Shown here piece by piece: positions 22,350 through 62,963 of a stretch of DNA of 64,000 nt; positions within the stretch are counted from its first letter, which is position 1; each line of letters opens with the position of its first letter. The position numbers and the translations under genes are program-made. Below the pieces are notes generated by a model. It was not told the DNA's origin, ran no database searches, and worked only from the letters and a program-made list of their open reading frames with translations. Where the stretch lies: contig JAXSMZ010000002.1 of NCBI GenBank assembly GCA_037924335.1, positions 91,255 to 155,254 of the forward strand, written 5' to 3'. Origin of the DNA: Aquificaceae bacterium (lineage in GTDB: Bacteria > Aquificota > Aquificia > Aquificales > Aquificaceae).

Positions 22350-22356
22350 TTTTTAA

Positions 22357-22585
22357 CATAAATCTTGCAAGAAGTCTCCATCCTCTATAGGGTGGAGATG
22401 AATTGCAAAAACTTGACAAAGTTCATATGTCAGTCTATAATTATTTGTAGCTCTGAAAACCAAAGAGTTGGGCTCACCCACCTAACGGGTGGTAGGGCTG
22501 GAACGGTCCGAACTGAAGCCTGTGGAGAGGTGAAAAGCCTCCATGAAGCAGGAAGCTCCATCTTCTATAAGATGGAGTAGTTCAC
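22357..22585 (+). mobile_element. Non-autonomous IS200/IS605-type mini-element A (left-end hairpin, promoter, omegaRNA-like scaffold, right-end hairpin)
   Basis: Follows TTTAA; LE TTGCAA-GAAGT-CTCCATCC..GGGTGGAG-ATGAA-TTGCAA; RE GAAG-CTCCATCTT-CTAT-AAGATGGAG-TAGTTCAC; homologous to 38941-39155; excision restores the mscS end RTVYLK. Confidence 0.85.
22413..22441 (+). promoter_or_regulatory. Consensus sigma70 promoter inside mini-element A
   Basis: TTGACA-N17-TATAAT. Confidence 0.85.
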
Positions 22586-22605
22586 ATATACTGTCCTTAC
22601 AGGGA
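22448..22605 (+). ncRNA. Putative TnpB omegaRNA/reRNA (scaffold to 22585 plus about 16-20 nt flank-derived guide)
   Basis: Resembles tnpB 3'-end sequence (GGTAGGGCTGGAACGGTCCGAACT.AAGCCTGTGGAG..GAAGCAGGAAGCTCC..GTTCAC); hairpins co-vary with copy C; ends are inferred. Confidence 0.65.
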
Positions 22606-23596
22606 ATGGTATCTTTATGTTCTCCTCCTCGTATCTCTTTTTAAGCCTTTTTATGAACTCATGTCTTACCAAAAACTGGGCATCAGGGTCCATTACTCTT
22701 AAGATGACGCTAAAGTTTATGCTAAAGTCTCCAAAGCTCGAGTACCTTATGAAGGGTTCAAATTCTGGGTCTGCTCCCTCTACAGTCTTTTGAACCTCCC
22801 TTGCCACATCTACCGTCACGCTTTCCACCTTCTCAAGGTCCGAAGAGTAGCTCACACCTACAGGGATAATCAGAGCCATGGATGGCTCTGGTTTTCTGTA
22901 GTTTACCACCACAGAGCTAACAAGCTTTGAGTTTGGTACTACAACTATGTTGTTGTCCCTCCTTTTTATTACAGTATTCATCCAAGTTATATCCACAACA
23001 AAGCCCTCTTCCCCATCCTCTAACTTTACAAAGTCCCCTATCTCTACCTGTCTCGATGCGATTATATTAAGCCCAGAAAAGAAGTTGGACAAAGTTCCTT
23101 GGAGTGCTAAAGAAATAGCAAGAGCACCTATGCCTAAGGTTGTTATAAAGTGTGTGACTGGAACACCTAAGAAGTTGAGCAAAGTTATCACACCAAGGGC
23201 TATTACGGTAGCCCTTATAAGAGCGTATATCAACGCTGTTGGTGGTAAAGATATGTTGGACTTCTTTATATAAAGTTTTATTAGCCCTACAGTTAGCTCA
23301 GAAGCGGCAAAAGTAAAAGAGAATATCAGCAAACCTTCTATAAGTTTTTCTAAAAGTGATGCGTACCTTGTGTGTTTTTGTAAATATTCGGAAAAATAGA
23401 TAGCCAAGTAGAGTGAAAAAGAGAGGATCCAAAGTACAGATGGTAGCCTTACAGCTCTATGTAGAGTCTCAAATAAAGATACTCCTTTTAGCTTTTTCTT
23501 GAGAATGTGGAAGGTAATATATCGTAAGAAGAGAAGGAAAAAGGAAGAAACAAAGAAAATGAGCAAAGGTGATACATACACTTCCCAGTAATTCAA
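22565..23596 (-). CDS. mscS: Small-conductance mechanosensitive channel
   Basis: LALQGTLSNFFSG, IGDFV, VPNS, GVSY.SD, IPFPVRTVY; the current stop lies inside mini-element A. Confidence 0.92.
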   Translation of the reverse strand: MNYWEVYVSPLLIFFVSSFFLLFLRYITFHILKKKLKGVSLFETLHRAVRLPSVLWILSFSLYLAIYFSEYLQKHTRYASLLEKLIEGLLIFSFTFAASELTVGLIKLYIKKSNISLPPTALIYALIRATVIALGVITLLNFLGVPVTHFITTLGIGALAISLALQGTLSNFFSGLNIIASRQVEIGDFVKLEDGEEGFVVDITWMNTVIKRRDNNIVVVPNSKLVSSVVVNYRKPEPSMALIIPVGVSYSSDLEKVESVTVDVAREVQKTVEGADPEFEPFIRYSSFGDFSINFSVILRVMDPDAQFLVRHEFIKRLKKRYEEENIKIPFPVRTVYVNYSIL

Positions 23597-24252
23597 AAAT
23601 AATACCTCCCCTTTTTATAAAAGACCCTTGCCAGAATATAGCCCACTCCAAAACCTCCAATGTGAGCAAACCATGCAACACCTCCAAACTTAGCAAAGGG
23701 CAAAGTAAGAATACCGTTTATGACCTGAATGATTATCCAGAAACCTATGAAAAAAACGGCAGGAACTTCCATAAAGGTCAGTACAAAGAACACAGGTACC
23801 AAAGAAAGTACCCTTGCATGTGGGAACATCCAAAGGTACGCTCCCATAACTCCGCTGATGGCACCGCTGGCTCCAACCATAGGCACAGATGTCCCACCCA
23901 AAAGGAAGCTAACAAAAGTTTGCAAAAAAGCTGCACCAACACCAGACAATAAATAGAAGGTCAAGTACCTTATCTTTCCAAGCCTGTCCTCTACGTTATC
24001 CCCAAAAACCCAAAGAAACCACATGTTCCCTATAATGTGTAGCCAGCTACCGTGTAAAAACATATGCGTTAAAAGGGTGTAAGGCTTGTGGAAGACTTCA
24101 GCAGGAACAAGTCCATAAGAATAAACAAAAGCGTTCATCCTCTGTTCGTCTAAGCTAACCTCAAAAAGCCACACCAGAGAAGAAACAACTATCAAGGCTA
24201 TGTTCACAAGGGGAAAACTTCTGCTCCTGTTTATATCCCTTATTGGAATCAT
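23593..24252 (-). CDS. Rhomboid intramembrane serine protease
   Basis: HMFLHG.W.HI.GNM, GASGAI, AHIGG. Confidence 0.92.
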   Translation of the reverse strand: MIPIRDINRSRSFPLVNIALIVVSSLVWLFEVSLDEQRMNAFVYSYGLVPAEVFHKPYTLLTHMFLHGSWLHIIGNMWFLWVFGDNVEDRLGKIRYLTFYLLSGVGAAFLQTFVSFLLGGTSVPMVGASGAISGVMGAYLWMFPHARVLSLVPVFFVLTFMEVPAVFFIGFWIIIQVINGILTLPFAKFGGVAWFAHIGGFGVGYILARVFYKKGRYYF

Positions 24253-24426
24253 AGAAATAGTATAAAAAATTTCTTTAATTCTAAATGGCAGTGTCAGGGT
24301 GTTTCAAAAATACGTCCCTGCAGTAAGCACGGGACCATCTTCTCATTTTGAAAAGCCTCATGAAATATTAACAAATTCTTCACCAAAGTATATATTATAT
24401 TCTTTTATATCGCTGGAGGTTATGTT

Positions 24427-26181
24427 ATGACAAGGAAAGGAGCGGATATAGTTATAGAGACTCTTAAGGAAGAGGGTGTTGAACATATATTTGGACACCC
24501 TGGTGGTGCCATAATGGAAGTGTACGATGCCCTTTACAGAGATGGAAGTATAAAACATATATTGACTAGGCATGAGCAGGGGGCTGGCCATATGGCAGAA
24601 GGTTATGCAAAAGCCACAGGAAAGGTTGGAGTTGCCATGTCTACATCGGGACCAGGAGCAACAAACCTTGTTACAGCCATAGCGGACGCTTACATGGACT
24701 CTGTCCCCGTTGTCTTCATAACTGGGCAGGTACCAACTCATCTTATAGGAAACGATGCTTTCCAAGAGGTTGACATAGTTGGAATAACAAGACCTATAAC
24801 AAAGCATAACTTCCTTGTAAAGGATATAGAATCCCTGCCCCTTATAATAAGGGAGGCCTTTTACATAGCAAGGGCAGGAAGACCTGGACCAGTTCTCATA
24901 GATATACCGAAGGATATAACTCAGAAGTTTTCGGATGTTGCCATACCAGACATGGAAAAGGTCATAAATTCCCTTCCAGGTTACAAGCCACACACAGAAG
25001 GAAATCCACAGCAGATAAGAAAGGCTGCAAGGCTAATAATGGAGGCAAAGAGGCCTGTTTTGTACGTGGGTGGTGGAGCCATCCATGCTGAGGCTAATAA
25101 GGAAGTTTTGGAACTTGCAGAACTGATGAACATACCAGTCACCACCACAAACATGGGAAAGGGTGCTTTTCCAGAAACCCATCCCCTTGCACTCCATATG
25201 CTTGGAATGCATGGAACTTACTATGCCAACATGGCTGTTTACAACTGCGACCTCCTTATAGCAGTAGGGGCAAGGTTTGACGATAGAGTAACTGGTAAAG
25301 TGGAGGAATTTGCGCCGCAGGCTACCATTATACACATAGACATAGACCCAGCATCCATATCGAAGAACATAGTTGTTGATGTGCCCATAGTAGGAGATGT
25401 AAAAATTGTCCTTAGAAAGCTTATGGATGAGATAAAGAAGGAAGGTGCCAAGGTGCTTTTCTTAGAGGAAAGAAACAAATGGGTAGAACAGATAGAGAGA
25501 TGGAAAAAGCTACATCCTTTGACCTACAGAAACTCTGACAAAGTCATAAAGCCCCAGTACGTTATAGAACAGATATGGTACGCAACAAAGGGAGATGCCA
25601 TAATAGCAACTGGTGTAGGACAGCACCAGATGTGGTCAGCTATGTTTTACAAGTACTCCTTTCCAAGGCAGCTCATAAACTCCGGTGGGCTTGGTACTAT
25701 GGGGTTTGGTCTGCCTGCCGGCATAGGAGCAAAGATAGGCAGGGAGGATAAAGAGGTCTTTGTGATAGATGGAGATGGCTCTTTTATGATGACCATGCAA
25801 GAGCTTATAACTGCAGTTCAATACCGTGTGCCTGTAAAGATAGCGATAATAAACAACGGATACCTTGGTATGGTGCGCCAATGGCAAGAGCTCTTCTATG
25901 AAAAGCGTTATTCAGAGGTGGACCTTAGCGTACAGCCAGATTTTGTCAAACTTGCGGAAGCGTGCGGTGCAGTAGGCTTTAGAGCCCAAAAGCCATCTGA
26001 GGTGAGGGAAATAGTAGAGGAAGCTCTAAAGGTTCAGGATAAGCCTGTAGTTATGGACTTTCATGTGGACAGGGAGGAAAACGTCCTTCCTATGGTACCA
26101 GCAGGAAAGTCTTACAAGGATATGATACTTGAGGATGGCAAAAAGGGTGTAGAAGCAGATACAATGTATCTTGTAGGTTGA
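24427..26181 (+). CDS. ilvB: Acetolactate synthase large subunit
   Basis: RHEQGA.HMA, TSGPGATN, GMHG, RFDDRVTG, GDGSF, LGMVRQWQ. Confidence 0.96.
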   Translation: MTRKGADIVIETLKEEGVEHIFGHPGGAIMEVYDALYRDGSIKHILTRHEQGAGHMAEGYAKATGKVGVAMSTSGPGATNLVTAIADAYMDSVPVVFITGQVPTHLIGNDAFQEVDIVGITRPITKHNFLVKDIESLPLIIREAFYIARAGRPGPVLIDIPKDITQKFSDVAIPDMEKVINSLPGYKPHTEGNPQQIRKAARLIMEAKRPVLYVGGGAIHAEANKEVLELAELMNIPVTTTNMGKGAFPETHPLALHMLGMHGTYYANMAVYNCDLLIAVGARFDDRVTGKVEEFAPQATIIHIDIDPASISKNIVVDVPIVGDVKIVLRKLMDEIKKEGAKVLFLEERNKWVEQIERWKKLHPLTYRNSDKVIKPQYVIEQIWYATKGDAIIATGVGQHQMWSAMFYKYSFPRQLINSGGLGTMGFGLPAGIGAKIGREDKEVFVIDGDGSFMMTMQELITAVQYRVPVKIAIINNGYLGMVRQWQELFYEKRYSEVDLSVQPDFVKLAEACGAVGFRAQKPSEVREIVEEALKVQDKPVVMDFHVDREENVLPMVPAGKSYKDMILEDGKKGVEADTMYLVG

Positions 26182-26191
26182 GGTGAAGATC

Positions 26192-26767
26192 ATGAGTGAT
26201 ACAGTTGGGAAAGCACAGATAGAGGCTGTAAAAGCTCCAATGCTTAGAGAGGTCAAGAAGGGTCAAACAAGAAAGCACATTATAACCCTTCTTGTCAGGA
26301 ATGAGCTTGGTGTTCTTGCGAGGATAGCTACTCTCATAGCTGGCAAAGGATATAACATAGAAGGGTTGTCTGTAGGAGAAACTCATGAAAAGGGGATTTC
26401 CCGCATGACCATAGAGGTCATAGGGGACGATGTGATTATAGACCAGGTAGTCAAACAGCTTAGAAAGCTCATAGATACCATAAAGGTTAGAGACCTAACA
26501 GATGCATCCCATGTGGAGAGGGAGCTTGTTTTAATAAAGGTTCATACCTCCACACCAAGAGCAAGAGACGAAGTCTTAAGGCTTGTGGAGATATTCAGGG
26601 GGAAGGTAGTAGATGTGTCCCCAAACACTTATACAGTGGAGATAACAGGCACAGAAGACAAAATAAAAGCTTTTATAGACTTGGTTAAGCCCTATGGAAT
26701 AGTAGAAATGGCAAGCACAGGGAAGGTAGCGTTGAGGAGAGAAATATCAGGAAACGAGGAGGATTGA
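26192..26767 (+). CDS. ilvN: Acetolactate synthase small (regulatory) subunit
   Basis: ACT domain N..GVLARI..L....YNIE.LSV, ERELVLIKV. Confidence 0.94.
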   Translation: MSDTVGKAQIEAVKAPMLREVKKGQTRKHIITLLVRNELGVLARIATLIAGKGYNIEGLSVGETHEKGISRMTIEVIGDDVIIDQVVKQLRKLIDTIKVRDLTDASHVERELVLIKVHTSTPRARDEVLRLVEIFRGKVVDVSPNTYTVEITGTEDKIKAFIDLVKPYGIVEMASTGKVALRREISGNEED

Positions 26768-26768
26768 T

Positions 26769-28241
26769 ATGGACGTGATCTCGCACAAGAAAACCTATAA
26801 AGAGATAATGGAGTTTCCAGTTGGAGTGTTTGTTTTTGAGGAGGATTTTGAAAACCTCGGATACATAGGGAAGTATCAGGAAAAAGTCAAAAAGGTTCTC
26901 TCCGTAGAGAACTTCAAAGGGAAGGAAGATACCATTATCAAAGTTCCGACAGTTGAGGATGATAGGGTAAGTGTCTTTTATATAATGGGGCTTGGTAAAA
27001 AAGATAAAGTGGGGCTTGACCAGTACAGGAGAGCTTCGGCCATCTTTGTGAAAAGGCTCAGGAAGGACAATGTGCTTAAAGCTTACCTTTACGCTGGGGA
27101 GGATATGGATCACAGAAAGACAAAGGCCATAACGGAAGGTCTTATCTTAGGAAATTACAGCTTCGATAAGTACAAAACGAAGAAAGATGAGGAAAAACTT
27201 ACAAAGGTGGAAAGCGTAAGCATATACGGAGGGGATGAAGAGGGTATAAGGGTTGGAAGCATACTGTCTGAAGCTCAAAACTTTGCCAGGGACCTTGTAA
27301 ACGAGCCAGGTAACGTGATAAATCCCATAACCTTAGCAGAGATGGCTCAAAAGTTAGCAAAGGAGTACAGTATAGAGTGCAGAGTTTACGACGAGAGAGA
27401 GATCCAAGAGATGGGAATGAACGCCCTTTGGAGTGTAGGGAAAGGCTCTTCAACTCCACCAAGGTTTATACATCTCCTTTACAAACCAGAAGGGGAGCCA
27501 AAGGATAGGATAGTCATAGTGGGAAAGGGGCTTACCTTTGACAGTGGGGGACTGAACATAAAGACTGGCGATTATATGAGAACTATGAAGATGGATAAAT
27601 CTGGAGCTTGCGCCGTACTTGGAATTATGAAGGCTCTATCCTTGCTAAAACCAAACATAGAGGTTCATGGGGTCATAGGTGCTGCTGAGAACATGCCAAG
27701 CGGTAGCGCTTATAGACCTGATGACATAATAAGGGCTATGAACGGAAAGACCATTGAAGTAGATAATACGGATGCGGAGGGAAGAATAACGCTGGCAGAT
27801 GCTCTTTCGTACGCTTCCAACTTAAAGCCATCTTTTATCATAGACTTGGCAACGCTTACAGGTGCATGTATAGTTGCCCTTGGCGAATACACAGCAGGCC
27901 TTTTCACCAACGATGATGAGTTTGGAGACCTCCTTCTGGCAGTTTCAAAGGAAACAGGAGAAAGGCTATGGAAACTACCCATGGATGACAAAAAGCTAAG
28001 GGAAAAGCTTAAAAAAGCTGATGCGGACGTTGTAAACACCGCTGGCAGGTACGGAGGCGCAATAACAGCTGCCATGTTTTTGGAAGAGTTTGTAGGAGAA
28101 GGTATAAAATGGGCTCACATTGATATTGCTGGACCAGCTTACTTTAAGGAGGAGTTCGGATACTACTCAAAAGGTGCAGCTGGCTTTGGTGTTAGAACAT
28201 GTCTTGAGTGTATACTCAGATTAGACAAGGTCAACCCTTAA
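26769..28241 (+). CDS. pepA: Leucyl aminopeptidase (M17)
   Basis: VGKGLTFDSGG, MK.DK.G, NTDAEGR..LAD, ATLTG. Confidence 0.95.
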   Translation: MDVISHKKTYKEIMEFPVGVFVFEEDFENLGYIGKYQEKVKKVLSVENFKGKEDTIIKVPTVEDDRVSVFYIMGLGKKDKVGLDQYRRASAIFVKRLRKDNVLKAYLYAGEDMDHRKTKAITEGLILGNYSFDKYKTKKDEEKLTKVESVSIYGGDEEGIRVGSILSEAQNFARDLVNEPGNVINPITLAEMAQKLAKEYSIECRVYDEREIQEMGMNALWSVGKGSSTPPRFIHLLYKPEGEPKDRIVIVGKGLTFDSGGLNIKTGDYMRTMKMDKSGACAVLGIMKALSLLKPNIEVHGVIGAAENMPSGSAYRPDDIIRAMNGKTIEVDNTDAEGRITLADALSYASNLKPSFIIDLATLTGACIVALGEYTAGLFTNDDEFGDLLLAVSKETGERLWKLPMDDKKLREKLKKADADVVNTAGRYGGAITAAMFLEEFVGEGIKWAHIDIAGPAYFKEEFGYYSKGAAGFGVRTCLECILRLDKVNP

Positions 28242-28952
28242 TATGCTTATGTTGTCTCTTCCCCCTCTTTTAAGCGCCAACAGCAAAAGCTCAGAGGGTG
28301 ATAAAAAAAGCTCATAGTCTTGAGTTGCTTCCCAAAGTCCATCGGAGCATATTAAGAAACTTTTGTAACTGTTGGCTTTCCCTATGTGAACCTCAAACTC
28401 TTCAAAGCTTGGGCTGCCTATCAAGGCAGATGTCAATAAGTGCCTGTTGGGATGAGTTTTTGCTTCTTCTTCTGATATGTAGCCAAGGCGTACAAGCCTT
28501 TCTACCTCTGTATGGTCAACTGTAAGCCTTTGTATTTTCTCATCCTCCAACCCATAAACTCTACAATCCCCCACATTGAAGACAAAAGTTCCTTCATCAC
28601 TCAATACCAGACCAGCCAAAGCAGTACCAAGACCGTATGCATAGGCATTTTCCCTTGCAAACTCTTCCAATCTATCCCTAGCCTTATGTAAAGCACGGAT
28701 TATATCCTCCGAGCCTTTTGGTCTCAGCTCCATCAGAGTTTGAAGTGCAAACCTGCTTGCCATCTCCCCAGCTGCGTGTCCACCAAGACCGTCCGCAACG
28801 GCAAATATAAGATGATCACCCTCCCTTTCGAAGCAAAGGGGTGAGGTCATAACTTCCTCCTGCACTACCATATCGTTCAAAAGCAACGCATCCTCATTCC
28901 TATCCCTCAACTTTCCTCTGTGAGTTATACCGCATACCTTCACCCTATACAT
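28221..28952 (-). CDS. PP2C/PPM-family Ser/Thr protein phosphatase
   Basis: R.RNED, VADGLGGH..GE.AS, NVGD.R.Y, ICSDGL, GGRDNIS. Confidence 0.92.
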   Translation of the reverse strand: MYRVKVCGITHRGKLRDRNEDALLLNDMVVQEEVMTSPLCFEREGDHLIFAVADGLGGHAAGEMASRFALQTLMELRPKGSEDIIRALHKARDRLEEFARENAYAYGLGTALAGLVLSDEGTFVFNVGDCRVYGLEDEKIQRLTVDHTEVERLVRLGYISEEEAKTHPNRHLLTSALIGSPSFEEFEVHIGKANSYKSFLICSDGLWEATQDYELFLSPSELLLLALKRGGRDNISILRVDLV

Positions 28953-29818
28953 TACCCACCGATTACACTCCCTATCCTTACAGTTCCGATGTCTGTAATC
29001 TCCATATAATGCGTCCTTGTGTCATGCCCACACATCCTACAGCCATCTATCCTGAAGAATCTCACCATCTCACCTATTGGCTTTTTATACAGCCTTGACT
29101 GAGAAGCCGTCATCACCAGATCCTTGGAAAGAACTAAGGAGCAATCCACTATGTGACTGACGGCATAACCTCCTGCGGCCTCTGCCGTTAGCTCCTCATG
29201 CCCACTTCTCTTCTGCGACACAAATATGGCTGTCTGATACCACTTTTTCATAAAGTTAAAAAGCTGTCTTACCACAACCCTTGCCAGCATCTCCCTTGCT
29301 TCGTAAAGCCCAGTTACAGAATCTATGATCACATGCTTTACCCTGTAAGTTTTTATGGCATAGGCTAAGGTAGCCAAAAGGTCTGGTATGTTCTCCCTTA
29401 GCTTGGAATGGGTTGCCGCATCTATTAGGACTATCTTGTCCTGCACTTTATCGAAATCCACTTTCATAGCCTTTGCCCTTTGACTCAAGCCAACCGTCAT
29501 AAAAGGGGCTGGCGACTCAACAGTGACAAAAGCTACAACCTCCCCCCTGCTTGCCTGCATTACAGTATACTGCTCTGCTATCAAGGTCTTACCAGTATCA
29601 GAAACTCCCGTTATGTTTGTTACAGAGTAGGCTGGTATACCACCCAAAGGCACTCTTTCCACCTTACCATCCCTGAGCTCAGCATTAAAGAAAAGCCCAT
29701 CCAAACCCTCAACACCAGTAGGAATGCCATACATCTTTGGAGCTTTCTTTACAGCCTCCCCCGCTATCCATATGCTCTCCTCTACAACCTCTGGCTTCTT
29801 CTCTCCCAACTCATCCAT
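28952..29818 (-). CDS. Single-domain KaiC/RAD55-like ATPase
   Basis: GIPTGV.GLD, Walker A GVSDTGKT, IIDSVT, SHIVD, IDGCRMCGHD. Confidence 0.88.
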   Translation of the reverse strand: MDELGEKKPEVVEESIWIAGEAVKKAPKMYGIPTGVEGLDGLFFNAELRDGKVERVPLGGIPAYSVTNITGVSDTGKTLIAEQYTVMQASRGEVVAFVTVESPAPFMTVGLSQRAKAMKVDFDKVQDKIVLIDAATHSKLRENIPDLLATLAYAIKTYRVKHVIIDSVTGLYEAREMLARVVVRQLFNFMKKWYQTAIFVSQKRSGHEELTAEAAGGYAVSHIVDCSLVLSKDLVMTASQSRLYKKPIGEMVRFFRIDGCRMCGHDTRTHYMEITDIGTVRIGSVIGG

Positions 29819-29899
29819 AGTTAAATAGTATAAAAGACTCAACCCTTTGAAAAATTAGAACCTTGAACTTTTAATGCAAGCTAAGTAAATTAATTATCT

Positions 29900-31219
29900 A
29901 TGAAGTACTACATAAGGACCTTTGGATGCCAGATGAACTTTAACGACACAGAGAGGATAAAGGGTTTGCTCAAGAGCGTGGGTTATCAGCAAGCAAACAG
30001 CTGGGAAGAGGCAGACCTTATACTCATAAACACATGCACCATAAGGGAAAAACCAGACCATAAAGTTTTCTCCCATCTGGGGGAGTACAGGAAGATAAAG
30101 GATAAAAACCCAAAGGCTTTGATAGGTGTGTGCGGTTGCTTGGCTCAGAGGATGGGACATGACCTTGTACAGAAAGCCCCAATGGTAGACCTTATGTTTT
30201 CAAGCTTTAACATACATCAGCTTCCTGACCTTGTAAGGCAAGCACAGGAGGGATACAAAGCCATAGCCATCTTAGAAAATCCACCTTCCGATGAAGAAAA
30301 GATGTGGGAGTATCCAACTGTTAGGGATAACGAATACTGCGCTTATGTGACGGTTATGAAAGGATGCGACAAGAGTTGCACTTACTGTGTTGTGCCAAAG
30401 ACAAGAGGAAGGCAAAGGTCAAGAAGCATAGAGAGCATTCTAAGAGAAGTGAAGGAGCTTATAGCCGATGGTGTCAAGGAAGTTCATATTTTGGGACAGA
30501 ATGTCACGGCTTGGGGAGAGGATAAAGGCAGTTATTTCTCTGAGCTTCTTTACAGGATAGCCGAGGTGGATGGAGTTGAAAGGATAAGGTTCACGACAGG
30601 GCATCCAAAAGACTTGGATGAGAGGATAGTAAAAGCTATGGCTGATATACCCCAAGTTTGTGAGCATATACACCTTCCAATTCAAGCTGGTTCTGATAGG
30701 ATCCTGAAGCTTATGGATAGAGGGTACACAAAAGAAGAGTACTTAGAAAAGGTCCAAATGTTAAGAGAGTACGTTAAGGGTATAACCTTTTCAACGGACA
30801 TAATAGTAGGCTTTCCATCGGAAGAGGATGAGGACTTTGAAGAAACACTTGATGTTCTCAAAAGGGTAAGATTTGAACAGGTATTTTCCTTCAAGTTCTC
30901 TCCAAGACCAGATACGCAAGCTTACACTATGAAGGGTCAAGTTTCCGAAGAGATAAAGACAAGAAGAATGGCAAAACTGCTTGAAGTTCAGAAGTCCATA
31001 CTGGATAAGATGGCAAAGTCTTATGAGGGTACAGTTCAGGAGGTACTTATTGAAAGCTGTGAAGATGGAAATAAATTAATAGGAAGGACGAGGACAAACA
31101 GGTGGGTCAGTATGAAAGGTAGACCAGAATTACTTGGTAAAGTTGTGAAAGTTAAGGTCCTGAGGTCTAAGCCTTACAGTATGGAAGGTGAGGTCCTCAG
31201 TCAGGAGGTAAAAAGATGA
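29900..31219 (+). CDS. miaB: tRNA methylthiotransferase MiaB
   Basis: TFGCQMN, NTC.IRE, radical SAM C.K.C.YC, TRAM C-terminus. Confidence 0.95.
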   Translation: MKYYIRTFGCQMNFNDTERIKGLLKSVGYQQANSWEEADLILINTCTIREKPDHKVFSHLGEYRKIKDKNPKALIGVCGCLAQRMGHDLVQKAPMVDLMFSSFNIHQLPDLVRQAQEGYKAIAILENPPSDEEKMWEYPTVRDNEYCAYVTVMKGCDKSCTYCVVPKTRGRQRSRSIESILREVKELIADGVKEVHILGQNVTAWGEDKGSYFSELLYRIAEVDGVERIRFTTGHPKDLDERIVKAMADIPQVCEHIHLPIQAGSDRILKLMDRGYTKEEYLEKVQMLREYVKGITFSTDIIVGFPSEEDEDFEETLDVLKRVRFEQVFSFKFSPRPDTQAYTMKGQVSEEIKTRRMAKLLEVQKSILDKMAKSYEGTVQEVLIESCEDGNKLIGRTRTNRWVSMKGRPELLGKVVKVKVLRSKPYSMEGEVLSQEVKR

Positions 31220-31698
31220 TAGAGATGGTTGTTCATGGAGTAACTTTGGACCCAGTTTCTCAGATGCCCATAGTGGTACTAAAGGCAAAGGAGAATGAAG
31301 AGATAATTCTTCCCATCTGGATAGGTATATTTGAAGCGGACAGTATAGTGAGAGAGATTCAGAATATTGAACCACCAAGACCTATGACCTATGAACTGAT
31401 GAAGGACATAATACAGCAGATGAACGGGTCAGTTGATAAGATAGTAATAAACGACCTAAAGGATAGCACTTACTATGCAGAGATATACCTCAATGTAGGA
31501 GCCAACACTCTTGTAATAGACTCAAGGCCGAGCGATGCTATAAACTTAGCCCTCAGGTTTGAATGTCCCATATACGTTGACCCAGGAGTGCTTGAAAAGT
31601 CAAAAGTACCAAAACCGGAGGAAGAGGAAGAGAAAGAGCAAATTAAAGAATGGTTAGAGAACATAAAACCGGAAGACTTTGAAAAGGGACTAAGCTAA
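31216..31698 (+). CDS. Bifunctional nuclease family (DUF151)
   Basis: LPIWIG.FEA, PRPMT..L, DSRPSDAI.LALR. Confidence 0.9.
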   Translation: MIEMVVHGVTLDPVSQMPIVVLKAKENEEIILPIWIGIFEADSIVREIQNIEPPRPMTYELMKDIIQQMNGSVDKIVINDLKDSTYYAEIYLNVGANTLVIDSRPSDAINLALRFECPIYVDPGVLEKSKVPKPEEEEEKEQIKEWLENIKPEDFEKGLS

Positions 31699-31706
31699 AG
31701 GTATGC

Positions 31707-32357
31707 TCAAAACACTGCTGACCCAATAATAAGGCCATAAAGAAAAATTATAATGGGAAGCATAACTCTACCAAGTATTCCAGTGAACAAAAGCAAGGTT
31801 ATTATAAGAAATCCATAAGTCTCAAACCTGTAGAATGTCTCCCAGTACTTTAAGGAGAAGAAGCTCATAAGAGCCCTTGAACCATCCAAGGGCGGTATGG
31901 GTATGGCGTTAAAAACTGCCAGAACTATGTTTATAAGCACAGACTTAGCAGAAAATATTGCCAAAGGCACAAACACACTTTTCCCAAGAAAATCCAAGTA
32001 ACCTATGTCTATAAGTCTGTACATGAAACCAAAGAGAAAAGCAAGGGAAAGGTTCATTGTAATGCCCGCTATTGATACGAGAAAGGTACCAAGCTTGAGG
32101 TCTCTAAACCTTAAAGGGTTTATGGGTACTGGCTTTGCCCATCCAAAGAGTATAGGAGAACCAAGGAGTATGAACATGGCTGGTAGTATAAGCGTACCAA
32201 AAGGGTCTATATGAGGTAATGGGTTCAGTGTGAGCCTTCCAGACTCCTTTGCTGTTGGGTCTCCCATCCTGTAGGCCATCCATCCATGAGCATACTCGTG
32301 CAGTATAACCGCCATCATTATTGCAGGTACTGTTATTATCGCTTCTCTTATATCCAT
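31707..32357 (-). CDS. Site-2 protease (M50) family
   Basis: HEYAH zinc motif, FN.IPIPPLDG. Confidence 0.9.
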   Translation of the reverse strand: MDIREAIITVPAIMMAVILHEYAHGWMAYRMGDPTAKESGRLTLNPLPHIDPFGTLILPAMFILLGSPILFGWAKPVPINPLRFRDLKLGTFLVSIAGITMNLSLAFLFGFMYRLIDIGYLDFLGKSVFVPLAIFSAKSVLINIVLAVFNAIPIPPLDGSRALMSFFSLKYWETFYRFETYGFLIITLLLFTGILGRVMLPIIIFLYGLIIGSAVF

Positions 32358-32407
32358 GTGAACTATTATAGAACAGGTGGTTAAAAAGCTTATGGTATAA
32401 TCTTCTC

Positions 32408-33157
32408 ATGCTCTCCATAGACCTAAAGGGAAAGGTGGCTCTAATTACCGGTTCTACAAGAGGAATAGGAAGAAGTATAGCAGAACATATGGCTATGGCT
32501 GGTGCGGACGTAGTTATAACCGGTAGAGATGGGATAAAGGCTCAAGAAGTAGCAGAGCACCTTTCTGAGAGGTACTCTGTAAAGGCAATGGGGATAGAGC
32601 TGAGGTTGGATGAGCCTGATTCTATAAGGTCTGGTTATGAAAAGATAGAAAAGCAAATGGGGAAGGTTGATATACTTGTAAACAACGCAGGGATCACAAA
32701 AGACAGACTGTTTTTGAGGATGTCTTTGGAAGATTGGGAAGAGGTCCTGAGGGTTAATCTCACGGGGACTTTTCTAACAACTTCGTTGGCTGTAAAAGGG
32801 ATGCTAAAAAACAGGTGGGGAAGGATAATTAACGTATCCTCAGTAGTTGGGTTTATTGGAAATGTGGGACAGGTGAACTACTCCTCTACAAAATCAGCCC
32901 TTATTGGCTTTACCAAGAGCCTTGCCAAAGAACTTGCCTCAAGGAATATAACGGTTAACGCAGTGGCTCCAGGTTTTATAGAGACGGATATGACTGCCGT
33001 ACTGTCCGAAGACGTGAAGCGGGAGTATTTAAAGAGTATACCCATAGGTAGGTTTGGAAAGCCTGATGATGTTGCGGGTGTTGTGCTTTTTCTATGTACA
33101 GGCTTTGCAGATTACATAACTGGAGAGGTTATCCATGTAAACGGGGGCATGTATTAA
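32408..33157 (+). CDS. fabG: 3-oxoacyl-ACP reductase
   Basis: TGSTRGIG, NNAGIT.D, GQVNYSSTK, VAPGFIETDMT, VNGGM. Confidence 0.93.
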   Translation: MLSIDLKGKVALITGSTRGIGRSIAEHMAMAGADVVITGRDGIKAQEVAEHLSERYSVKAMGIELRLDEPDSIRSGYEKIEKQMGKVDILVNNAGITKDRLFLRMSLEDWEEVLRVNLTGTFLTTSLAVKGMLKNRWGRIINVSSVVGFIGNVGQVNYSSTKSALIGFTKSLAKELASRNITVNAVAPGFIETDMTAVLSEDVKREYLKSIPIGRFGKPDDVAGVVLFLCTGFADYITGEVIHVNGGMY

Positions 33158-33166
33158 CTTTATTCT

Positions 33167-33661
33167 ATGCCCATATGCTATGTATCCTTTGGAAGCAATT
33201 GGGAAGACAGAATAGGAAACATACTAAAAGCCATAAGCCTGTTGAAAAAAATTGGAAAAATAAAGAGCATATCTACTGTTTACGAAAGCGAGCCATGGGG
33301 TGTAGAGAGCCAACCATCCTTTTTGAACGGTGTTTTAAAGCTTGAAACCCATCTGAACCCCATAAGCCTTCTAAGAGCTTTAAAAAACATTGAGGAGCAG
33401 GTAGGAAGAGTAAAAAGGTACAGATGGGGACCAAGGGAGATAGACTTAGACATAGTTCTCTATGAAAACTACGTAATAATGCTTAGTTTTTTAAAGGTAC
33501 CGCATCCACACATGCTGGAAAGGGACTTTGTCCTTTTCCCACTCGTTGAGATAGATAGGGACATTGCATACCCCATAACTAAAGAAAGAATAAAATCCTA
33601 TGCAGAGAGGTTAGAGAACAGGTTAAAGCCTTACTGCTGTATACTTCTTGATAAGGCTTGA
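33167..33661 (+). CDS. folK: 6-hydroxymethyl-7,8-dihydropterin pyrophosphokinase
   Basis: GSN, S.VYESEPWG, FLN, RWGPREIDLDI, PHP.M.ER.FVL.PL. Confidence 0.94.
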   Translation: MPICYVSFGSNWEDRIGNILKAISLLKKIGKIKSISTVYESEPWGVESQPSFLNGVLKLETHLNPISLLRALKNIEEQVGRVKRYRWGPREIDLDIVLYENYVIMLSFLKVPHPHMLERDFVLFPLVEIDRDIAYPITKERIKSYAERLENRLKPYCCILLDKA

Positions 33662-33662
33662 C

Positions 33663-34883
33663 TCACTTTTTACCTTTTACGTACTGTTCCCAGTTCTCTG
33701 GTGTAAAGGGCGATATCTCCCTGAGAAGCTTTATGACCTTTGGAAACTCTTCTATAACATAATCCACGTCCTCTTCTATGTTTTCCCTTCCAAAGCTAAA
33801 GACAAGAGAGCCATTGGCAACCTCTTTTGGAACACCTATAGCAAAAAGGACATGGGATTGTTTTAGTGCCAGAGACACACAGGCAGAACCGGAAGCAGTC
33901 TCTATGCCCATCAGGTCAAGTCTCAGAAGCATTGCCTCTCCCTCTATGAGCTGTATAATAAGGGAAAGATGATGGGGAAGCCTCTGTGTAGGATGTCCTG
34001 TGAATTCTATGTAGTTTACCTTCTCCTCAATAGCCTTTCTTAGTTTATCCCTGTAATTGGAAAGTCTTGTCATTCTGTCCTGAAGTTCCTTCATAGTCAG
34101 TTCTGCTGCTGCTCCAAAACCTACAATACCTGGTACGTTCTCCGTCCCAGCCCTTATTCCCCTTTCTTGAGTCCCCCCTTCTATTAGAGGTCTTACCTTT
34201 ATTCCCTTCTTAGTCCAAAGAGCTCCAACACCTTTTGGTCCATACATAAGATGAGCTGTAAAAGATGCGGCATCTACTCCCCAGTCTTTGACGTCTACGG
34301 GATAGTGTCCAAGGGTAGGAGCGGCGTCCGTATGGAATATAACCTTTGGGTTCTTTGCTTTTGCAGCCTGAACTAAACTCTTTATATCCTGGACTGTTCC
34401 TATTTCTCTGTTAGAGTGTCCTATGCTAACGAGCACTGTATCCTCTCTTATAGCCTCGGAGACCTGCTCTGGATGTATGAGCCCATACTTATCAGGCTTG
34501 ATATAGCTAACTTCCCATCCTTCCCTTTCTAAGCTTTTGAGAGGATGAAGCACTGAGTGATGCTCTATTTCCGTTGAAACTATATGTCTTCCTCTCTTCT
34601 CATAAGCCTTTGTTATCCCCTTTATTGCCAAGTTGTTTGCCTCTATTCCGCCGGATGTAAAAAGGACCTCCTCTGGGGAGTTTGCGTTTACAAGATGAGC
34701 TATCTTCTCCCTTGCTGAGTTTATGGCCTTTTTTGCAGTTTGACCAAAGCTATGAAGGGATGTTGGGTTTCCAAAGTTCTCCCTAAAGTAAGGGAGCATA
34801 GCCTCAAGAACCTCCTCAGCCAAAGGTGTTGTTGCTATATGGTCAAGGTACACAACCCTTTTTCCAGTTTTCTTTATAAACAT
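33663..34883 (-). CDS. iscS: Cysteine desulfurase (IscS/NifS group I)
   Basis: YLD..ATTP, GNP.SLH, EH.SV, GGTQERG.RAGTEN, SGSAC; the expected PLP Lys motif reads FTAHLMYGPKG. Confidence 0.85.
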   Translation of the reverse strand: MFIKKTGKRVVYLDHIATTPLAEEVLEAMLPYFRENFGNPTSLHSFGQTAKKAINSAREKIAHLVNANSPEEVLFTSGGIEANNLAIKGITKAYEKRGRHIVSTEIEHHSVLHPLKSLEREGWEVSYIKPDKYGLIHPEQVSEAIREDTVLVSIGHSNREIGTVQDIKSLVQAAKAKNPKVIFHTDAAPTLGHYPVDVKDWGVDAASFTAHLMYGPKGVGALWTKKGIKVRPLIEGGTQERGIRAGTENVPGIVGFGAAAELTMKELQDRMTRLSNYRDKLRKAIEEKVNYIEFTGHPTQRLPHHLSLIIQLIEGEAMLLRLDLMGIETASGSACVSLALKQSHVLFAIGVPKEVANGSLVFSFGRENIEEDVDYVIEEFPKVIKLLREISPFTPENWEQYVKGKK

Positions 34884-34885
34884 GT

Positions 34886-35908
34886 TTACCTCCTTAAAAG
34901 TTTATCGCTTATAAGCTTTGCAATGCTTAGGAAGGCCTTTGATACTTCCGAATGGGGTTCGCTTTTGACGATCGGAAAACCCATATCAGACCTTTCTGCC
35001 ACTTGGGGGTCTATGGGTATGGAACCCAAAACCTGCAAACCGTAAGATGCTGCAAACTCAAGCACTTTCCCTTTGCCAAATATGTAGTATTTTTTTTCGC
35101 TTTCTGGACATACAAAGTAGGCCATATTCTCTATGATACCAAGGATCGGGATGTCAACCTCCCTAAACATAGCAGTGGCCTTCCTAACATCGGCAAGGGC
35201 AACATCCTGAGGTGTTGTAACAACAACAGCACCGGATATTTCCACATTCTGAGCAAGCGTTAGCTGAACATCACCAGTACCGGGTGGAAGGTCTAGGAGA
35301 AGAATATCCAGCTCACCCCACTTTACATCAAAGAGAAACTGGGTAAGAGCCTTCATAAGCATGGGGCCCCTCCATATGATGGGAGTGTCCTCCGATGGAA
35401 GCAAAAAGCCTATGGAGAGCACCTTTATTCCGTACTTCTCAAGGGGGATTATTCTGTTATTCTCGTCCACGCTTACCCTCTCACCCCTTAGGCCCAACAG
35501 AGTGGGGATGCTCGGACCGTATATATCAGCATCTAAAAGCCCTACTTTATAGCCCATACTAGAAAGGGCTAAAGCGAGGTTTGCAGAGACAGTTGATTTA
35601 CCAACACCTCCTTTACCGCTACCTACTGCTATAAGGTGTTTGACCGATGGGACACGCCTTCTCGTAAAAGCTGCTTGCGAAGCAGGAGGCTCTTCCACAA
35701 ACCTTACGTTTACACTCTTTACATCTGGAACAGACTCAAGAGACCTGTAAGTTCTCTGCCTTATCTCATCTTCCAAACCTCTCTTTGGAAGCCTGTAAAC
35801 TAGCTCAAGGGTAGACCCGATAAGCTTTACATCCTTTACAAGCTCCGAAAGCCTTTTGCCGTCTACAAGCTCCTCCTTGAGTGCATCCATAATGTCCTTT
35901 ACAGCCAT
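34886..35908 (-). CDS. mrp: Mrp/NBP35 (ApbC) Fe-S carrier ATPase
   Basis: SGKGGVGKST, DADIYGPS, WRGPM, DLPPGTGD, IENM.YF.CP; AAGGAGG RBS before 35908. Confidence 0.92.
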   Translation of the reverse strand: MAVKDIMDALKEELVDGKRLSELVKDVKLIGSTLELVYRLPKRGLEDEIRQRTYRSLESVPDVKSVNVRFVEEPPASQAAFTRRRVPSVKHLIAVGSGKGGVGKSTVSANLALALSSMGYKVGLLDADIYGPSIPTLLGLRGERVSVDENNRIIPLEKYGIKVLSIGFLLPSEDTPIIWRGPMLMKALTQFLFDVKWGELDILLLDLPPGTGDVQLTLAQNVEISGAVVVTTPQDVALADVRKATAMFREVDIPILGIIENMAYFVCPESEKKYYIFGKGKVLEFAASYGLQVLGSIPIDPQVAERSDMGFPIVKSEPHSEVSKAFLSIAKLISDKLLRR

Positions 35909-35990
35909 TAAATCCTCCTTTATTTTTGTAATATAATTTATTTTGCAGCATGTGTTTATGAGGATGGTCAAATAACGTAGAGGAGAGGCT

Positions 35991-36854
35991 ATGAATTACT
36001 TGCCCCAGGTTATTAAATATTTGAGTAGCACACAGGATATAGCAGAGATATATATGGTGCCTAAGGCTCCACCCGTAGATAGGAAAGATGAAAAGCTTGT
36101 AAAGGTCATGGATGTTATCCTAAATCCGGAAGATATAAGAGATACCCTTTTGGCTTTGAGAAGCTACGTATCATCCAGCCCAGGTCCTCTTGGCAACGAG
36201 GGAGTCTTTTCCTTTGGAATAAGCAACGTAGGAAGGTTTAAGGTCAGCTATACAGCTCAAAGAGGTAGCTATGCTGTGAATATAGTAAGAACACCTTACA
36301 GTATACCAATGTTAGAAGATCTATGCGAGGATAACAGGCAGGTGAATAAACTGGACGAGATGGTAAGATTGCATAGGTCTGGCATGATCTTAGTTTTAGG
36401 TAAAAACCCACCAAGAGTTAGTACTTTTGTATACTCCTTGCTTCAGCACGTATCCAAACATTATACAAAGGTCATATTAACTCTCGAAAAGCCCATATCC
36501 TTTTTGCTAAAGCATGATAGGTCTTTAGTCATACAGATAGAGGCGGGGACAGACACACCCACCTTTGAAGACGGACTCAGGAGCATATTTTATATGAACC
36601 CTGACGTTGTGTACATAGATTACAGAGGCATTGCTCTTGATAGGAAGATTTTACAAGGGCTTTATCATATCGTACAACTGGACACGTTGGTATTTTTCTA
36701 TCCCTCCTTTATGAACGAGGATACAGTTATGGAAAATCTTAAACAGCACAAGGAACTTATAAAGGCCATTGTGAGAGTCGAAGGGTCAAAGACAGGGGGA
36801 AAGTTAAACATCAGGATCACAGACACAGAACTTCAGGCTTCGGAAAACCATTAA
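35991..36854 (+). CDS. PilT-like protein with degenerate ATPase motifs
   Basis: PilT N-domain (FSF.I..VGRF.V....QRG), ILTLE.PI; Walker A position reads GKNPPRVST. Confidence 0.7.
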   Translation: MNYLPQVIKYLSSTQDIAEIYMVPKAPPVDRKDEKLVKVMDVILNPEDIRDTLLALRSYVSSSPGPLGNEGVFSFGISNVGRFKVSYTAQRGSYAVNIVRTPYSIPMLEDLCEDNRQVNKLDEMVRLHRSGMILVLGKNPPRVSTFVYSLLQHVSKHYTKVILTLEKPISFLLKHDRSLVIQIEAGTDTPTFEDGLRSIFYMNPDVVYIDYRGIALDRKILQGLYHIVQLDTLVFFYPSFMNEDTVMENLKQHKELIKAIVRVEGSKTGGKLNIRITDTELQASENH

Positions 36855-37989
36855 AGTTGGCCGCATAGACGGTAGTATAGGCTCCAGATGAGAGTATATA
36901 AACATAGTCTCCTACTTCTGGTTCTGGAAGGGCTACACCTTTGGCTATAACATCCATGCTGTCGCAGGAGATACCACCTATGGTCCAATCCTTTAGCTCC
37001 CCTTCCCTTTCTACGTAGATGGGATACCTTATTCCACCCAAAGCTTCTGCAAGACCGTTAAAAACTCCTGTGTCTATGTATATCCAATCCTCGTTGTCTC
37101 TTTTAGCTTTTCCTATAACCCTTGCTATCATCAATCCCTGGTCTCCCACCATACCCCTTCCCGGTTCTATCTGTAGCTCGTGTGGGTTGTTTGGGAAAAA
37201 TTTCTGTAAAAGCCCCTTTATGTAGTAAGCTATATCCTCTATACGAAGAGCTTCGTACATGTACTTTATGGGAATCCCACCTCCCATGTTTAGCATCTGC
37301 AGTCTAAACCCCCTCTTTGCAGCCATTGTCCAAAGTTCAGCAGATTTTTTAATAGCTATTAGCCAGTTCCTGTAGTTGTTGCACTGAGAACCCACATGGA
37401 AGGTAATACCGTAAGGTATGAGCCCTTTCTCTCGAACAAACTCAAGAATCTCCAAAGCTGTGTCCGCATTCACTCCAAACTTTCTGGAAAGTGGCCAGTC
37501 GCTTCCCTCGTTGGGAACGGAGATCCTCACATAAACCCTCGCTCTTTTGGCCACTTTTGCTATCTTTTCCACCTCTGCAAAGGAGTCCACGCAGAACCTA
37601 TCAGCTCCAACAGAGTAAGCATGCTCTATAAAGTTAATGGGTTTTACTGGATTGCTGGATATTATCCTCTCTGGCTTTATTCCTAAACTCAGAACTTTCT
37701 GAAGCTCATCTGAGGAAGCCACCTCAAAGCCTGAACTCAACTCAGAGAGCGCCCTAAGTATGTTTATATCGTCATTTGCCTTTACAGCATAGTAGACCTT
37801 AAACTGGGGCATATGGTACTTAAGCTGTGAATACTTCCTTTGAACACCCTTTAGGTCTATGAGAAGGAGTGGCGTTCTCTGAGGCTTTAGGTGATGTATA
37901 AAATGCTCTCTTTCCGAGATGAACTCCTCAAAGTACCTTTTAGCAAAACCAAACTGAAGGTCTCTGTAGTCCAAGGTTTCTTTAACCAT
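36817..37989 (-). CDS. Fold-type III PLP decarboxylase (ornithine/lysine/arginine decarboxylase family)
   Basis: YYAVKAN, GFEVAS, FHVGSQ, LNMGGG, IEPGR, GISCDSMD, GAYT. Confidence 0.88.
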   Translation of the reverse strand: MVKETLDYRDLQFGFAKRYFEEFISEREHFIHHLKPQRTPLLLIDLKGVQRKYSQLKYHMPQFKVYYAVKANDDINILRALSELSSGFEVASSDELQKVLSLGIKPERIISSNPVKPINFIEHAYSVGADRFCVDSFAEVEKIAKVAKRARVYVRISVPNEGSDWPLSRKFGVNADTALEILEFVREKGLIPYGITFHVGSQCNNYRNWLIAIKKSAELWTMAAKRGFRLQMLNMGGGIPIKYMYEALRIEDIAYYIKGLLQKFFPNNPHELQIEPGRGMVGDQGLMIARVIGKAKRDNEDWIYIDTGVFNGLAEALGGIRYPIYVEREGELKDWTIGGISCDSMDVIAKGVALPEPEVGDYVYILSSGAYTTVYAANFNGFPKPEVLCL

Positions 37990-38064
37990 AATAGATGGTA
38001 TATTAATGCAGGTTTATGATATTGCAAGAGTTTTGTTCTATGGGGGCGTGGAAGCCCCTCTTCT

Positions 38065-38532
38065 TTATTTGAGTATGTTTATTACATTCCTCCCCGTCTT
38101 GCTGGCTAGTTCAGCCATGCCACCTTTTAGCATGAAGGCATTGTCAAACCCTATCATTCTCAGAGCCATCGTGACAGGCGCTGCTCTTGTACCCGTATGA
38201 CACACTACTACTATCTTCTTATCCTTTGGAAGCTTTCTGAGATTCTCTTCTTTAAACAGTTCATGCATTGGTATTCTTAGAGCGTTTTTATAAGTTATTC
38301 CAACAACTCCCATCTCCTGAGGCGTCCTTATGTCCAAAATAACAACTTCATCCTTACTCATAAGCTCATGGAGCTGTCTAGAATCAATCTCACACGGCTT
38401 TTTTGCAACTACTTCAGGCGTTAACTGCGAAAACATACCGTCAAACTTCTTGGCAAGGTCGGCATCAAAGCTGTAAGCCTTTCCTACAAATAAGAAGGTC
38501 AAAAAGGCAACGACCAATTTCGCTTTTCTCAT
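38065..38532 (-). CDS. Exported rhodanese-like sulfurtransferase
   Basis: Signal peptide (AYS), ILDIRTPQE, VVCHTGTRA active-site loop, LKGGM. Confidence 0.85.
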   Translation of the reverse strand: MRKAKLVVAFLTFLFVGKAYSFDADLAKKFDGMFSQLTPEVVAKKPCEIDSRQLHELMSKDEVVILDIRTPQEMGVVGITYKNALRIPMHELFKEENLRKLPKDKKIVVVCHTGTRAAPVTMALRMIGFDNAFMLKGGMAELASKTGRNVINILK

Positions 38533-38563
38533 AGCATAACCCCCTTTAAGTTTTAATGGTTAT

Positions 38564-38592
38564 ATCTTAATATAAGAATTCAATTATGTCAA
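38564..38592 (-). promoter_or_regulatory. sigma70 promoter of the rhodanese gene
   Basis: TTGACA-N17-TAAGAT on the minus strand. Confidence 0.65.
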
Positions 38593-38657
38593 GCAAAAGC
38601 AAGGGTGCACTTAACCTCTTGCAATTTTCTCCAGCTGAGAAAGTTTATCCGTTTTAC

Positions 38658-38875
38658 GAAACCTCCACAAGAAGGCTCTCCTTTTCAAAGGAGAGATGAA
38701 TTGTGGAAATATGATTAAAATCATACAACAAAAACAAAGAAAAAATTATTATAATAATAATAATAATAATAATATCCTCTGGTATGCGGGATATAGCATA
38801 CCCTACCGTTGGACTGACGGGAAGTTAAGCCCTGAGGAAGGGAAGCTCCTCATTTTAATGAGGAGAGGAAGTCAC
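38658..38875 (+). mobile_element. Non-autonomous IS200/IS605-type mini-element B (second subfamily, TTAC target)
   Basis: Follows TTTAC; LE CCACAA-GAAGG-CTCTCCTTT-TC-AAAGGAGAG-ATGAA-TTGTGG; TACCGTTGGACTGACGGGAAGTTAAGCC scaffold; RE GAAG-CTCCTCATT-TT-AATGAGGAG-AGGAAGTCAC; excision restores the host frame. Confidence 0.82.
38753..38773. repeat. (AAT)7 microsatellite inside element B
   Basis: Seven perfect AAT units overlapping a TATAAT at 38750-38755. Confidence 0.9.
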
Positions 38876-38940
38876 CTACAACGATGAGAATATCTCCTTC
38901 CTTAATTATTGTCTGCGATGATTGTATGAGCCATTTTTAA

Positions 38941-39155
38941 CACAACTTTTTGCAAGAAGTCTCCGAGATGAATTGCAAAAAACTTGACAAAGAAAGGAAA
39001 ATAAAATACAATATAAAAAGTCCTGATAACCAAAGGAATGGGCTCACTCACCTAACGGGTGGTAGGGCAGGGACTGTCCGAACTCAAGCCTGTGGAGAGG
39101 TGAAAAACCTCTATAAAGCAGGAAGCTCCCACTTCTATAAGTGGGAATAGTTCAC
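38941..39155 (+). mobile_element. Non-autonomous IS200/IS605-type mini-element C (same family as A; 15-nt deletion in the LE hairpin)
   Basis: Follows TTTAA; collinear with element A; ends AGTTCAC. Confidence 0.85.
38984..39012 (+). promoter_or_regulatory. sigma70 promoter inside mini-element C
   Basis: TTGACA-N17-TACAAT at the same position as in A, with a diverged spacer. Confidence 0.8.
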
Positions 39156-39228
39156 CTTTTCAATTATCATATATCCAATAGTACCGAAGGCTAAGACTAC
39201 AAAAAGTAAATCCTTAGATGACTATTCA

Positions 39229-61151: not shown

Positions 61152-62703
<1,552 letters not shown>

Positions 62704-62760
62704 AAAAGGATCAATTCTTCTAAAGTAAAGGGTCCTTCCTCCTTATTGAGTTGCTCCCCT

Positions 62761-62834: not shown

Positions 62835-62850
62835 TTATCTGGGGCAGACA

Positions 62851-62922: not shown

Positions 62923-62963
62923 TGACATCTTGGCAACTGAATAGGTTTTCCTTCCTTTTGGGT

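Follow-up and report, generated by a model that had tools for sequence, protein, structure and literature searches.

The 64,000-nucleotide stretch analysed here (the window; positions 91,255 to 155,254 of contig JAXSMZ010000002.1, assembly GCA_037924335.1) comes from an Aquificaceae bacterium, a hot-spring organism whose genome is assembled as 1.53 Mb in 39 contigs. It contains three short elements, termed A, B and C (Table 1), which are real, mobile, protein-free derivatives of the IS200/IS605 family, i.e. palindrome-associated transposable elements (PATEs). All three lie where an initial annotation of the window had placed them and, as it stated, no open reading frame (ORF) for tnpA or tnpB is found inside any of them. 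The common layout that it proposed holds only in part, since B belongs to a separate family and has no clearly recognisable promoter, and C lacks the left-end hairpin. The most novel part of these elements was missed at that stage. The stretch between promoter and scaffold in A and C is not filler; it is a hairpin from the middle of tnpB, termed here the ENQ hairpin. There is no ENQ hairpin in B.

The ends of the elements are defined by empty alleles. In the relative G006 (locus L525) the sequence TTTTTAA is joined straight to the right flank of A, which fixes both boundaries of that element exactly. A left boundary one base later, with TTAAC as target-adjacent motif (TAM), is excluded by this empty site and by the guide rule described below. 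A single contig of run X8, from a strain that is ~4% diverged, lacks both B and C, with joints of 38655 to 38874 for B (two letters ambiguous) and 38941 to 39156 for C; the latter is off by 1 nt from the start first annotated, and the left boundary of C stays uncertain by 1 nt. The proposed mobility, with copies at different sites and empty alleles, is thereby borne out. The empty allele of A and the joints of B and C indicate that the elements insert 3′ of a constant motif of 4-5 nt and do not duplicate the target, and the suggested target motifs TTTAA or TTTAC indeed precede the copies. Subterminal hairpins are present at both ends of A and B, and there are no terminal inverted repeats.

The left DNA guide and its target vary in concert, AAGT being matched to TTAA in A, AAGG to TTAC in B and AAGA to TTAT in elements L337 and L367, while the right DNA guide GAAG fits TCAC. 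These guides were assigned by a pairing rule between guide and cleavage motif known from work on IS608. Mobilisation by an IS607-type serine recombinase was rejected, as there is no resolvase in the assembly and the ends are of the hairpin type. C is probably now immobile, its left-end hairpin having been lost. The insertion of A has replaced the C-terminal tail of an MscS-family protein encoded on the minus strand (mscS, 22565-22588); the protein ends ...TVYVNYSIL here, using codons from the right end of A, and ...TVYLKTVSQHQKGS in G006.

Six A-type miniature elements (minis) are found in the genome, comprising A, C, copies on contigs C4, C23 and C19 and a truncated one on C20, and there is an extra A-type piece at the start of a contig. 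Of 15 pattern matches to the B-type, 10 are copies that have a right end, and relatives of B occur in G084. A and C on the one hand and B on the other form two families, with different scaffolds and different target motifs (TTTAA vs TTTAC). No parent tnpB of the B-type was found in this genome. The AAT microsatellite at 38753-38773 is longer in B than in its copy on contig C8.

The promoters of A and C take the form TTGACA-N17-TA(T/C)AAT, as originally described, and match the consensus at 12/12 and 11/12 positions respectively. Only 86 sites in the genome match at 11/12 or better, with rRNA and tRNA promoters among them; at a looser scan threshold shuffled sequences give as many sites (1.1 and 2.4). 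A TG-extended -10 box is present in 7/10 of the B-type copies, and B itself is without it. The initial annotation held that the promoter was either kept or gained. It was kept, because it sits where the full-length elements have theirs, a sigma70 promoter being found at the same place in both. The promoter of the minis in G007 and G018 is plainly that of the parent, and the promoter of A is positionally homologous to the parental one with a diverged spacer. From sequence comparison, then, the mini promoter is the left-end promoter of the parent, most clearly inherited in G007 and G018.

The remainder of A and C is, on the basis of homology and covariation, a scaffold of the omegaRNA type with the same layout as tnpB 3′ ends. 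Identity to the 3′ end of the tnpB on contig C37 is 93% for A and 89% for C, while the scaffold of B has a likeness at the level of motifs only, to a tnpB end in G113. Folding z-scores are -2.2, -3.0 and -2.2 for A, C and B. Structural covariation across copies had been suggested as a check on function, and it was found: among 15 scaffolds 93.3% of cells are paired, compared with 84.6±0.9 for shuffles, and there are 36 double changes against 11.3. Related sequences can inflate such a comparison with shuffles; slid controls reach only 35-52% pairing. A matches the RAGATH-18 family (RF03064) with 31.5 bits (E 3e-4) and its relatives with 27.8-32.9 bits, the gathering threshold of 44.9 not being reached. 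At the gathering threshold Rfam returned rRNA and tRNA only in the window, and scans by e-value gave sub-threshold matches only. Compensatory changes distinguish the 5′ hairpin of B (38781-38802) from that of the short B-type copies, which suggests that the B scaffold is under selection too. The left-end region of L348 (328-416) has a weak match to the Listeria small RNA rli43 (E 0.0055, far below threshold), and rli43 may have an IS605-type end inside it.

Table 1. Features of elements A, B and C, in coordinates of the window.
Feature	Position	Strand	Basis or remarks
A, protein-free IS605 derivative (PATE)	22357..22585	+	Empty allele; near-identical copies on contigs C4 and C23
A, TAM TTTAA (host DNA)	22352..22356	+	Empty allele in G006; same motif precedes other A-type copies
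A, left end: DNA guide AAGT (+16 to +19) and subterminal hairpin (22376-22397)	22372..22397	+	Guide/target covariation across families
A, promoter TTGACA-N17-TATAAT	22413..22441	+	Position of the tnpA/tnpB promoter of the parent; predicted start ~22447-22448
A, ENQ hairpin, loop GAAAACCAA (22455-22463)	22448..22470	+	Homologous to hairpin at [DE][NS]Q codons in tnpB
A, predicted omegaRNA scaffold (tnpB 3′ end); right guide GAAG 22552-55, hairpin 22556-77, TCAC end	22470..22585	+	93% identity to C37 tnpB end
A, predicted guide (right flank), antisense to mscS 3′ end	22586..22605	+	From the TnpB mechanism
B, PATE of second family	38658..38875	+	TAM TTTAC 38653-57; left guide AAGG 38672-75; hairpin 38676-95
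B, further parts: AAT microsatellite 38753-73; 5′ hairpin 38781-38802; right hairpin 38846-65			
C, PATE of the A family, left-end hairpin deleted	38941..39155	+	TAM TTTAA 38936-40
C, promoter TTGACA-N17-TACAAT	38984..39012	+	Predicted start ~39019-39020
C, ENQ hairpin, loop GATAACCAA, 4-bp stem	39021..39037	+	Same homology as in A
C, predicted omegaRNA scaffold and right end	39040..39155	+	Homology, covariation

The loop of the ENQ hairpin, GA-N-A-R-Y-CAA, corresponds to the [DE]-[NS]-Q codons that immediately precede the RuvC-II glutamate of tnpB; the same loop closes a long stem in full-length tnpB genes. From 73 tnpB records 45 were left after dereplication at 85%, of which 28 have the motif and 17 do not. 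Compared with synonymous shuffles, a 45-nt window at the ENQ site gave a median z of -2.89 for the 28 genes, with 16/28 at p<0.05. By contrast, medians for 14 other windows ranged from -0.21 to +0.48 with 0-4 genes at p<0.05, and the 17 genes without the motif gave a z of -0.66. Codon choice is biased: the Asn codon is AAC in 24/27 genes (9.4 expected) and the Gln codon is CAA in 27/28 (20.5 expected), whereas the homologous Asn of xND-type TnpBs has no AAC bias (2/14 vs 3.5 expected). The loop-closing pair is complementary in 27/28 genes, including exchanges of CG for GC, AU and UA. In the 23 plus-strand rows of the 28 genes 74.8% of cells are paired, against 60.3±1.5 for shuffles and 31-58% for slid controls, and double changes number 55 against 20.4. 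Folded as RNA the hairpin has a mean energy of -11.0 kcal/mol, compared with -4.8 as DNA, and 49 of 552 pairs are G-U. The phage genes in the set were partly found with an ENQ-bearing pattern, which affects the apparent commonness of the clade and not the tests within it. It is very likely that the hairpin is under selection. TnpBs of the KNH type (L446, L477, L493, L587, L588 and L590) mostly have AAC-CAC at the homologous loop (3/3 and 2/3 in two sets), and the loop of the Allochromatium mini described below reads GATAACCAC; these may represent a variant form of the ENQ signal.

The hairpin is kept by many of the minis, and its origin in tnpB is apparent because L337 still reads DDSQVVVV around the loop, a remnant of the coding sequence. 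A pattern blind to the hairpin found 10 minis in 178 genomes of the phylum, nine of them with the loop; the gap range of this pattern excludes the shortest, hairpin-less type of G007 and G018. When mini lineages with the A-type scaffold were grouped by hand, 11/16 had the loop. This grouping was used since the automatic 'no hairpin' label is too strict (failing with a mismatch adjoining the loop), and the count excludes L027, L474, L586, L592 and L618 (other scaffolds or degenerate) as well as minis obtained with loop-containing queries. The minis of relatives have the same loop on different stems, and in 12 hand-picked loop-bearing lineages 56/60 stem positions are paired, compared with 33 when the arms are permuted. 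Mini stems are shorter and more perfect. The -10 box is followed by the stem at a distance of 5-8 nt in most lineages, and the hairpin would thus form the beginning of the RNA.

Within the source organism's own group the hairpin is combined with three left ends that are unrelated to each other. It is also found in minis of viral contigs and, with unrelated ends, in those on plasmids of Paenalcaligenes and Allochromatium. The minis probably go back to several independent double deletions, although module exchange between elements prevents an exact count. Breadth outside the phylum is undersampled, and the counts from genomes and metagenomes are at least those given. Scans with a loose pattern of left end plus scaffold yielded mostly chance matches, 11 passing a stricter filter among the 293 loci listed. 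No parent of the proteobacterial minis was found among the fetched tnpB ends, the closest (from Providencia and E. coli) being of the KNH type and not ENQ, and plasmid and phage searches with L348 and L367 brought up a single tnpB end.

Autonomous elements having tnpA, tnpB and the same ends as the minis had been anticipated, and they are present in the relatives G007 and G038. The source assembly itself did not provide them. No TnpA was detected in its 39 contigs (no PF01797, no resolvase and no tblastn match), though repeats may be unassembled. Nor was an intact cognate TnpB found in it; there are 23 matches to the TnpB zinc finger, and the cognate genes are represented only by halves, one of them frameshifted, and by 3′ ends at contig breaks. 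In G002 and G004, too, copies are numerous and TnpA gave no match. No second target for the guides (TAM plus 12-nt seed, ≤2 mismatches) exists in the genome, and the idea that the guides are directed to further loci of the host was rejected. Many G000 contigs (C6, C9, C12, C13, C17, C28, C29, C38 and C2:70158) are broken by a third tnpB family, which is present in high copy number and whose right end differs (ending GAGGAACTAT).

Standalone omegaRNAs (Altae-Tran 2021) were reportedly demonstrated for IscB. Mobilised, effector-less standalone omegaRNAs working in trans are cited in PMC10691335, whose accessible text mentions no intragenic RNA module. According to Meers et al. (PMC10055086), PATEs frequently code for omegaRNAs on which TnpB would act in trans, so the use of PATE-encoded omegaRNAs in trans is already published and is not new. 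The minimal elements of Geobacillus stearothermophilus (PMC10055086) and the PATEs of Haloquadratum walsbyi (PMC3119063) resemble those described here in having no ORF, subterminal hairpins, a target motif that covaries with the left DNA guide and mobilisation in trans. However, the accessible parts of those papers make no mention of a retained promoter or of a hairpin from within the ORF, whereas here a double deletion puts the intragenic hairpin at +1. The element class is thus already known and the retained intragenic hairpin is new. We found no description of it in the accessible literature, term searches of two 2026 reviews included; subscription papers and supplements could bear on its novelty. 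Further relevant literature is to be found in 10.1101/2023.11.20.567912, 10.1101/2023.03.06.531077 and PMC11061315.

A regulatory RNA within the tnpB ORF beside RuvC-II has been described for AmaTnpB, where nt 826-875 of the mRNA are inhibitory (Nety et al. 2023, PMC10278001). That region is located downstream of the catalytic Glu, with a proposed pairing to the omegaRNA, and AmaTnpB is without ENQ. The ENQ element by contrast is upstream of the Glu and has a covarying stem and a fixed loop. It is therefore not the inhibitory region of Nety et al., as the two lie on opposite sides of the Glu. The closest natural relative of the parent TnpB with a solved structure is the ISDra2 TnpB-omegaRNA complex (PDB 8BF8, 8EXA and 8H1J; E 7e-70). 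As here, it has a right-end hairpin and a likely pseudoknot, but it reads LVREYEIIGTE at the site in place of ENQ, so that the element would not come to light in this model enzyme. The absence of the motif from the two model enzymes that were checked (ISDra2 and Ama) may be why the hairpin went unseen.

We infer the following course of events. A, B and C would be moved as single-stranded DNA (ssDNA) by TnpA provided from elsewhere. A and C would be transcribed from the inherited left-end promoter, giving an RNA of ~140 nt plus guide in the order ENQ hairpin, omegaRNA scaffold, right end and flank. Cutting of the empty allele by TnpB, followed by recombination that restores the element, is a known mechanism; here a TnpB from a full-length element would use the mini RNA to cut the empty allele, and the mini would be restored. 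That the elements are PATEs with an omegaRNA is a layer of the explanation in which we have high confidence. In full-length elements of this TnpB clade the ENQ hairpin is very probably an RNA signal hidden in the ORF. Its reader would most likely be TnpB itself, and newly made protein would in this way be coupled to the transcript that encodes it, with loading, processing or autoregulation as the purpose; by keeping the hairpin at +1 the minis would be able to capture TnpB in trans. A fixed loop on a stem that is free to change suggests a protein site, and the spread across phyla suggests a reader encoded by the element and not a host protein. Among candidate readers we favour TnpB, then TnpA, then a host stability factor, and judged from these sequence patterns the chance that TnpB binds the hairpin is about even. 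PATEs with an ENQ hairpin read by TnpB are the best explanation as a whole, and we put its chances of being right and wrong on a par. More tentatively, and at somewhat less than an even chance, a large TnpB clade may have a second RNA module in its ORF that TnpB recognises in order to load onto the transcript encoding it. Parasites without genes would in that case have placed this module, independently in several phyla and by double deletion, at the start of a promoter-driven omegaRNA and so hijacked TnpB in trans.

A number of observations weigh against the best explanation. Orthologs 11 and 67 in Nety et al. (PMC10278001, file S2), both of the ENQ type, are reported as processed to omegaRNAs of 152 and 102 nt without the hairpin, and both were active in a TAM screen in vitro. 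These lengths exclude a long processed omegaRNA that has the hairpin at its 5′ end and, by analogy with these orthologs, the hairpin is no part of the minimal guide and is unneeded for cleavage in vitro. The hairpin is missing from 5/16 mini lineages, including that of G007 and G018, whose parent has it. In L337 the hairpin is kept but the -10 box is gone, and a clear -10 is lacking in L367. Significance at p<0.05 was not reached by 12/28 ENQ genes, and a pattern containing ENQ retrieved part of the phage set. Finally, with no TnpA found in the assembly and cognate tnpB found only as broken or contig-end pieces, the minis may now be orphans.

The hairpin could alternatively work with TnpA. As an ssDNA hairpin it would assist in excision or integration, or else as RNA it would be the site through which TnpA controls omegaRNA production, the minis keeping it for mobility. 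Since it is the top strand, the one transposed, that folds, RNA and ssDNA cannot be told apart by strand, and L337 retains the hairpin without a promoter. Furthermore TnpA recognises hairpins by structure and sequence (PMC10055086), and the accessible text of one review ties its presence to low omegaRNA abundance in IStrons. Yet the base of the stem is at the predicted start site in most lineages, folding is stronger as RNA than as DNA and includes the G-U pairs noted above, and hairpin-less minis are found at more than one site; we consider a function with TnpA improbable. The same position at +1 would also suit a stability element or a site for a host protein, marking or protecting a decay intermediate in the ORF and capping the omegaRNA of the minis against 5′ nucleases. 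The shorter, more perfect stems of the minis and the dispensability of the hairpin in vitro agree with such a role. A generic 5′ cap requires no fixed loop, however, whereas the loop is near constant while stems turn over, and the hairpin occurs in hosts of several phyla, so that this role too seems unlikely.

If the minis were simply deletion debris, with the hairpin a deletion hotspot or perfected by template switching and ENQ a protein motif only, then the lack of an intact helper, the many other broken tnpB pieces and the loss of the left hairpin from C would be expected, and internal deletions of IS605 elements are indeed reported as common (PMC3119063). But the synonymous constraint and covariation within the ORF, together with conservation of the loop in minis that do not code, speak against neutral decay, as does the need for two deletions to retain one internal piece of ~25 nt and the preservation of promoter boxes and spacing while spacers diverge. 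Neutral decay is largely refuted by the results on synonymous shuffling, stem pairing and covariation, and we regard it as very unlikely. The orientation of A into the 3′ end of mscS and of C towards the 3′ end of trpC could point to domesticated host regulators, acting as antisense promoters or with fixed guides. The insertions are strain-specific, however, each copy has a different flank and there is no second target in the genome, and domestication is scarcely credible.

Nested IS605 elements were observed at G000:C1:154200-156400, C4:27550-27800 and C1:215960-216255. One of these is located right after the ENQ-V-V-V-V-E-D-L segment of a tnpB, and another within a mini directly past its promoter. 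At the end of the window (61152-64000) is the start of an rRNA operon (16S, two tRNAs and 23S) with consensus sigma70 promoters upstream.

The minis provide a natural deletion scan, in which ends, promoter and scaffold must stay, and this exposes one extra RNA hairpin overprinted on the coding sequence of the nuclease. The hairpin could matter for compact TnpB editors. If it acts as proposed, codon-optimised or otherwise recoded genes would have erased it, and fusing the hairpin to guides could raise activity. For the family itself, the finding bears on the way in which TnpB locates its guide, loads it and regulates it, and on how elements that lack proteins of their own compete for TnpB.

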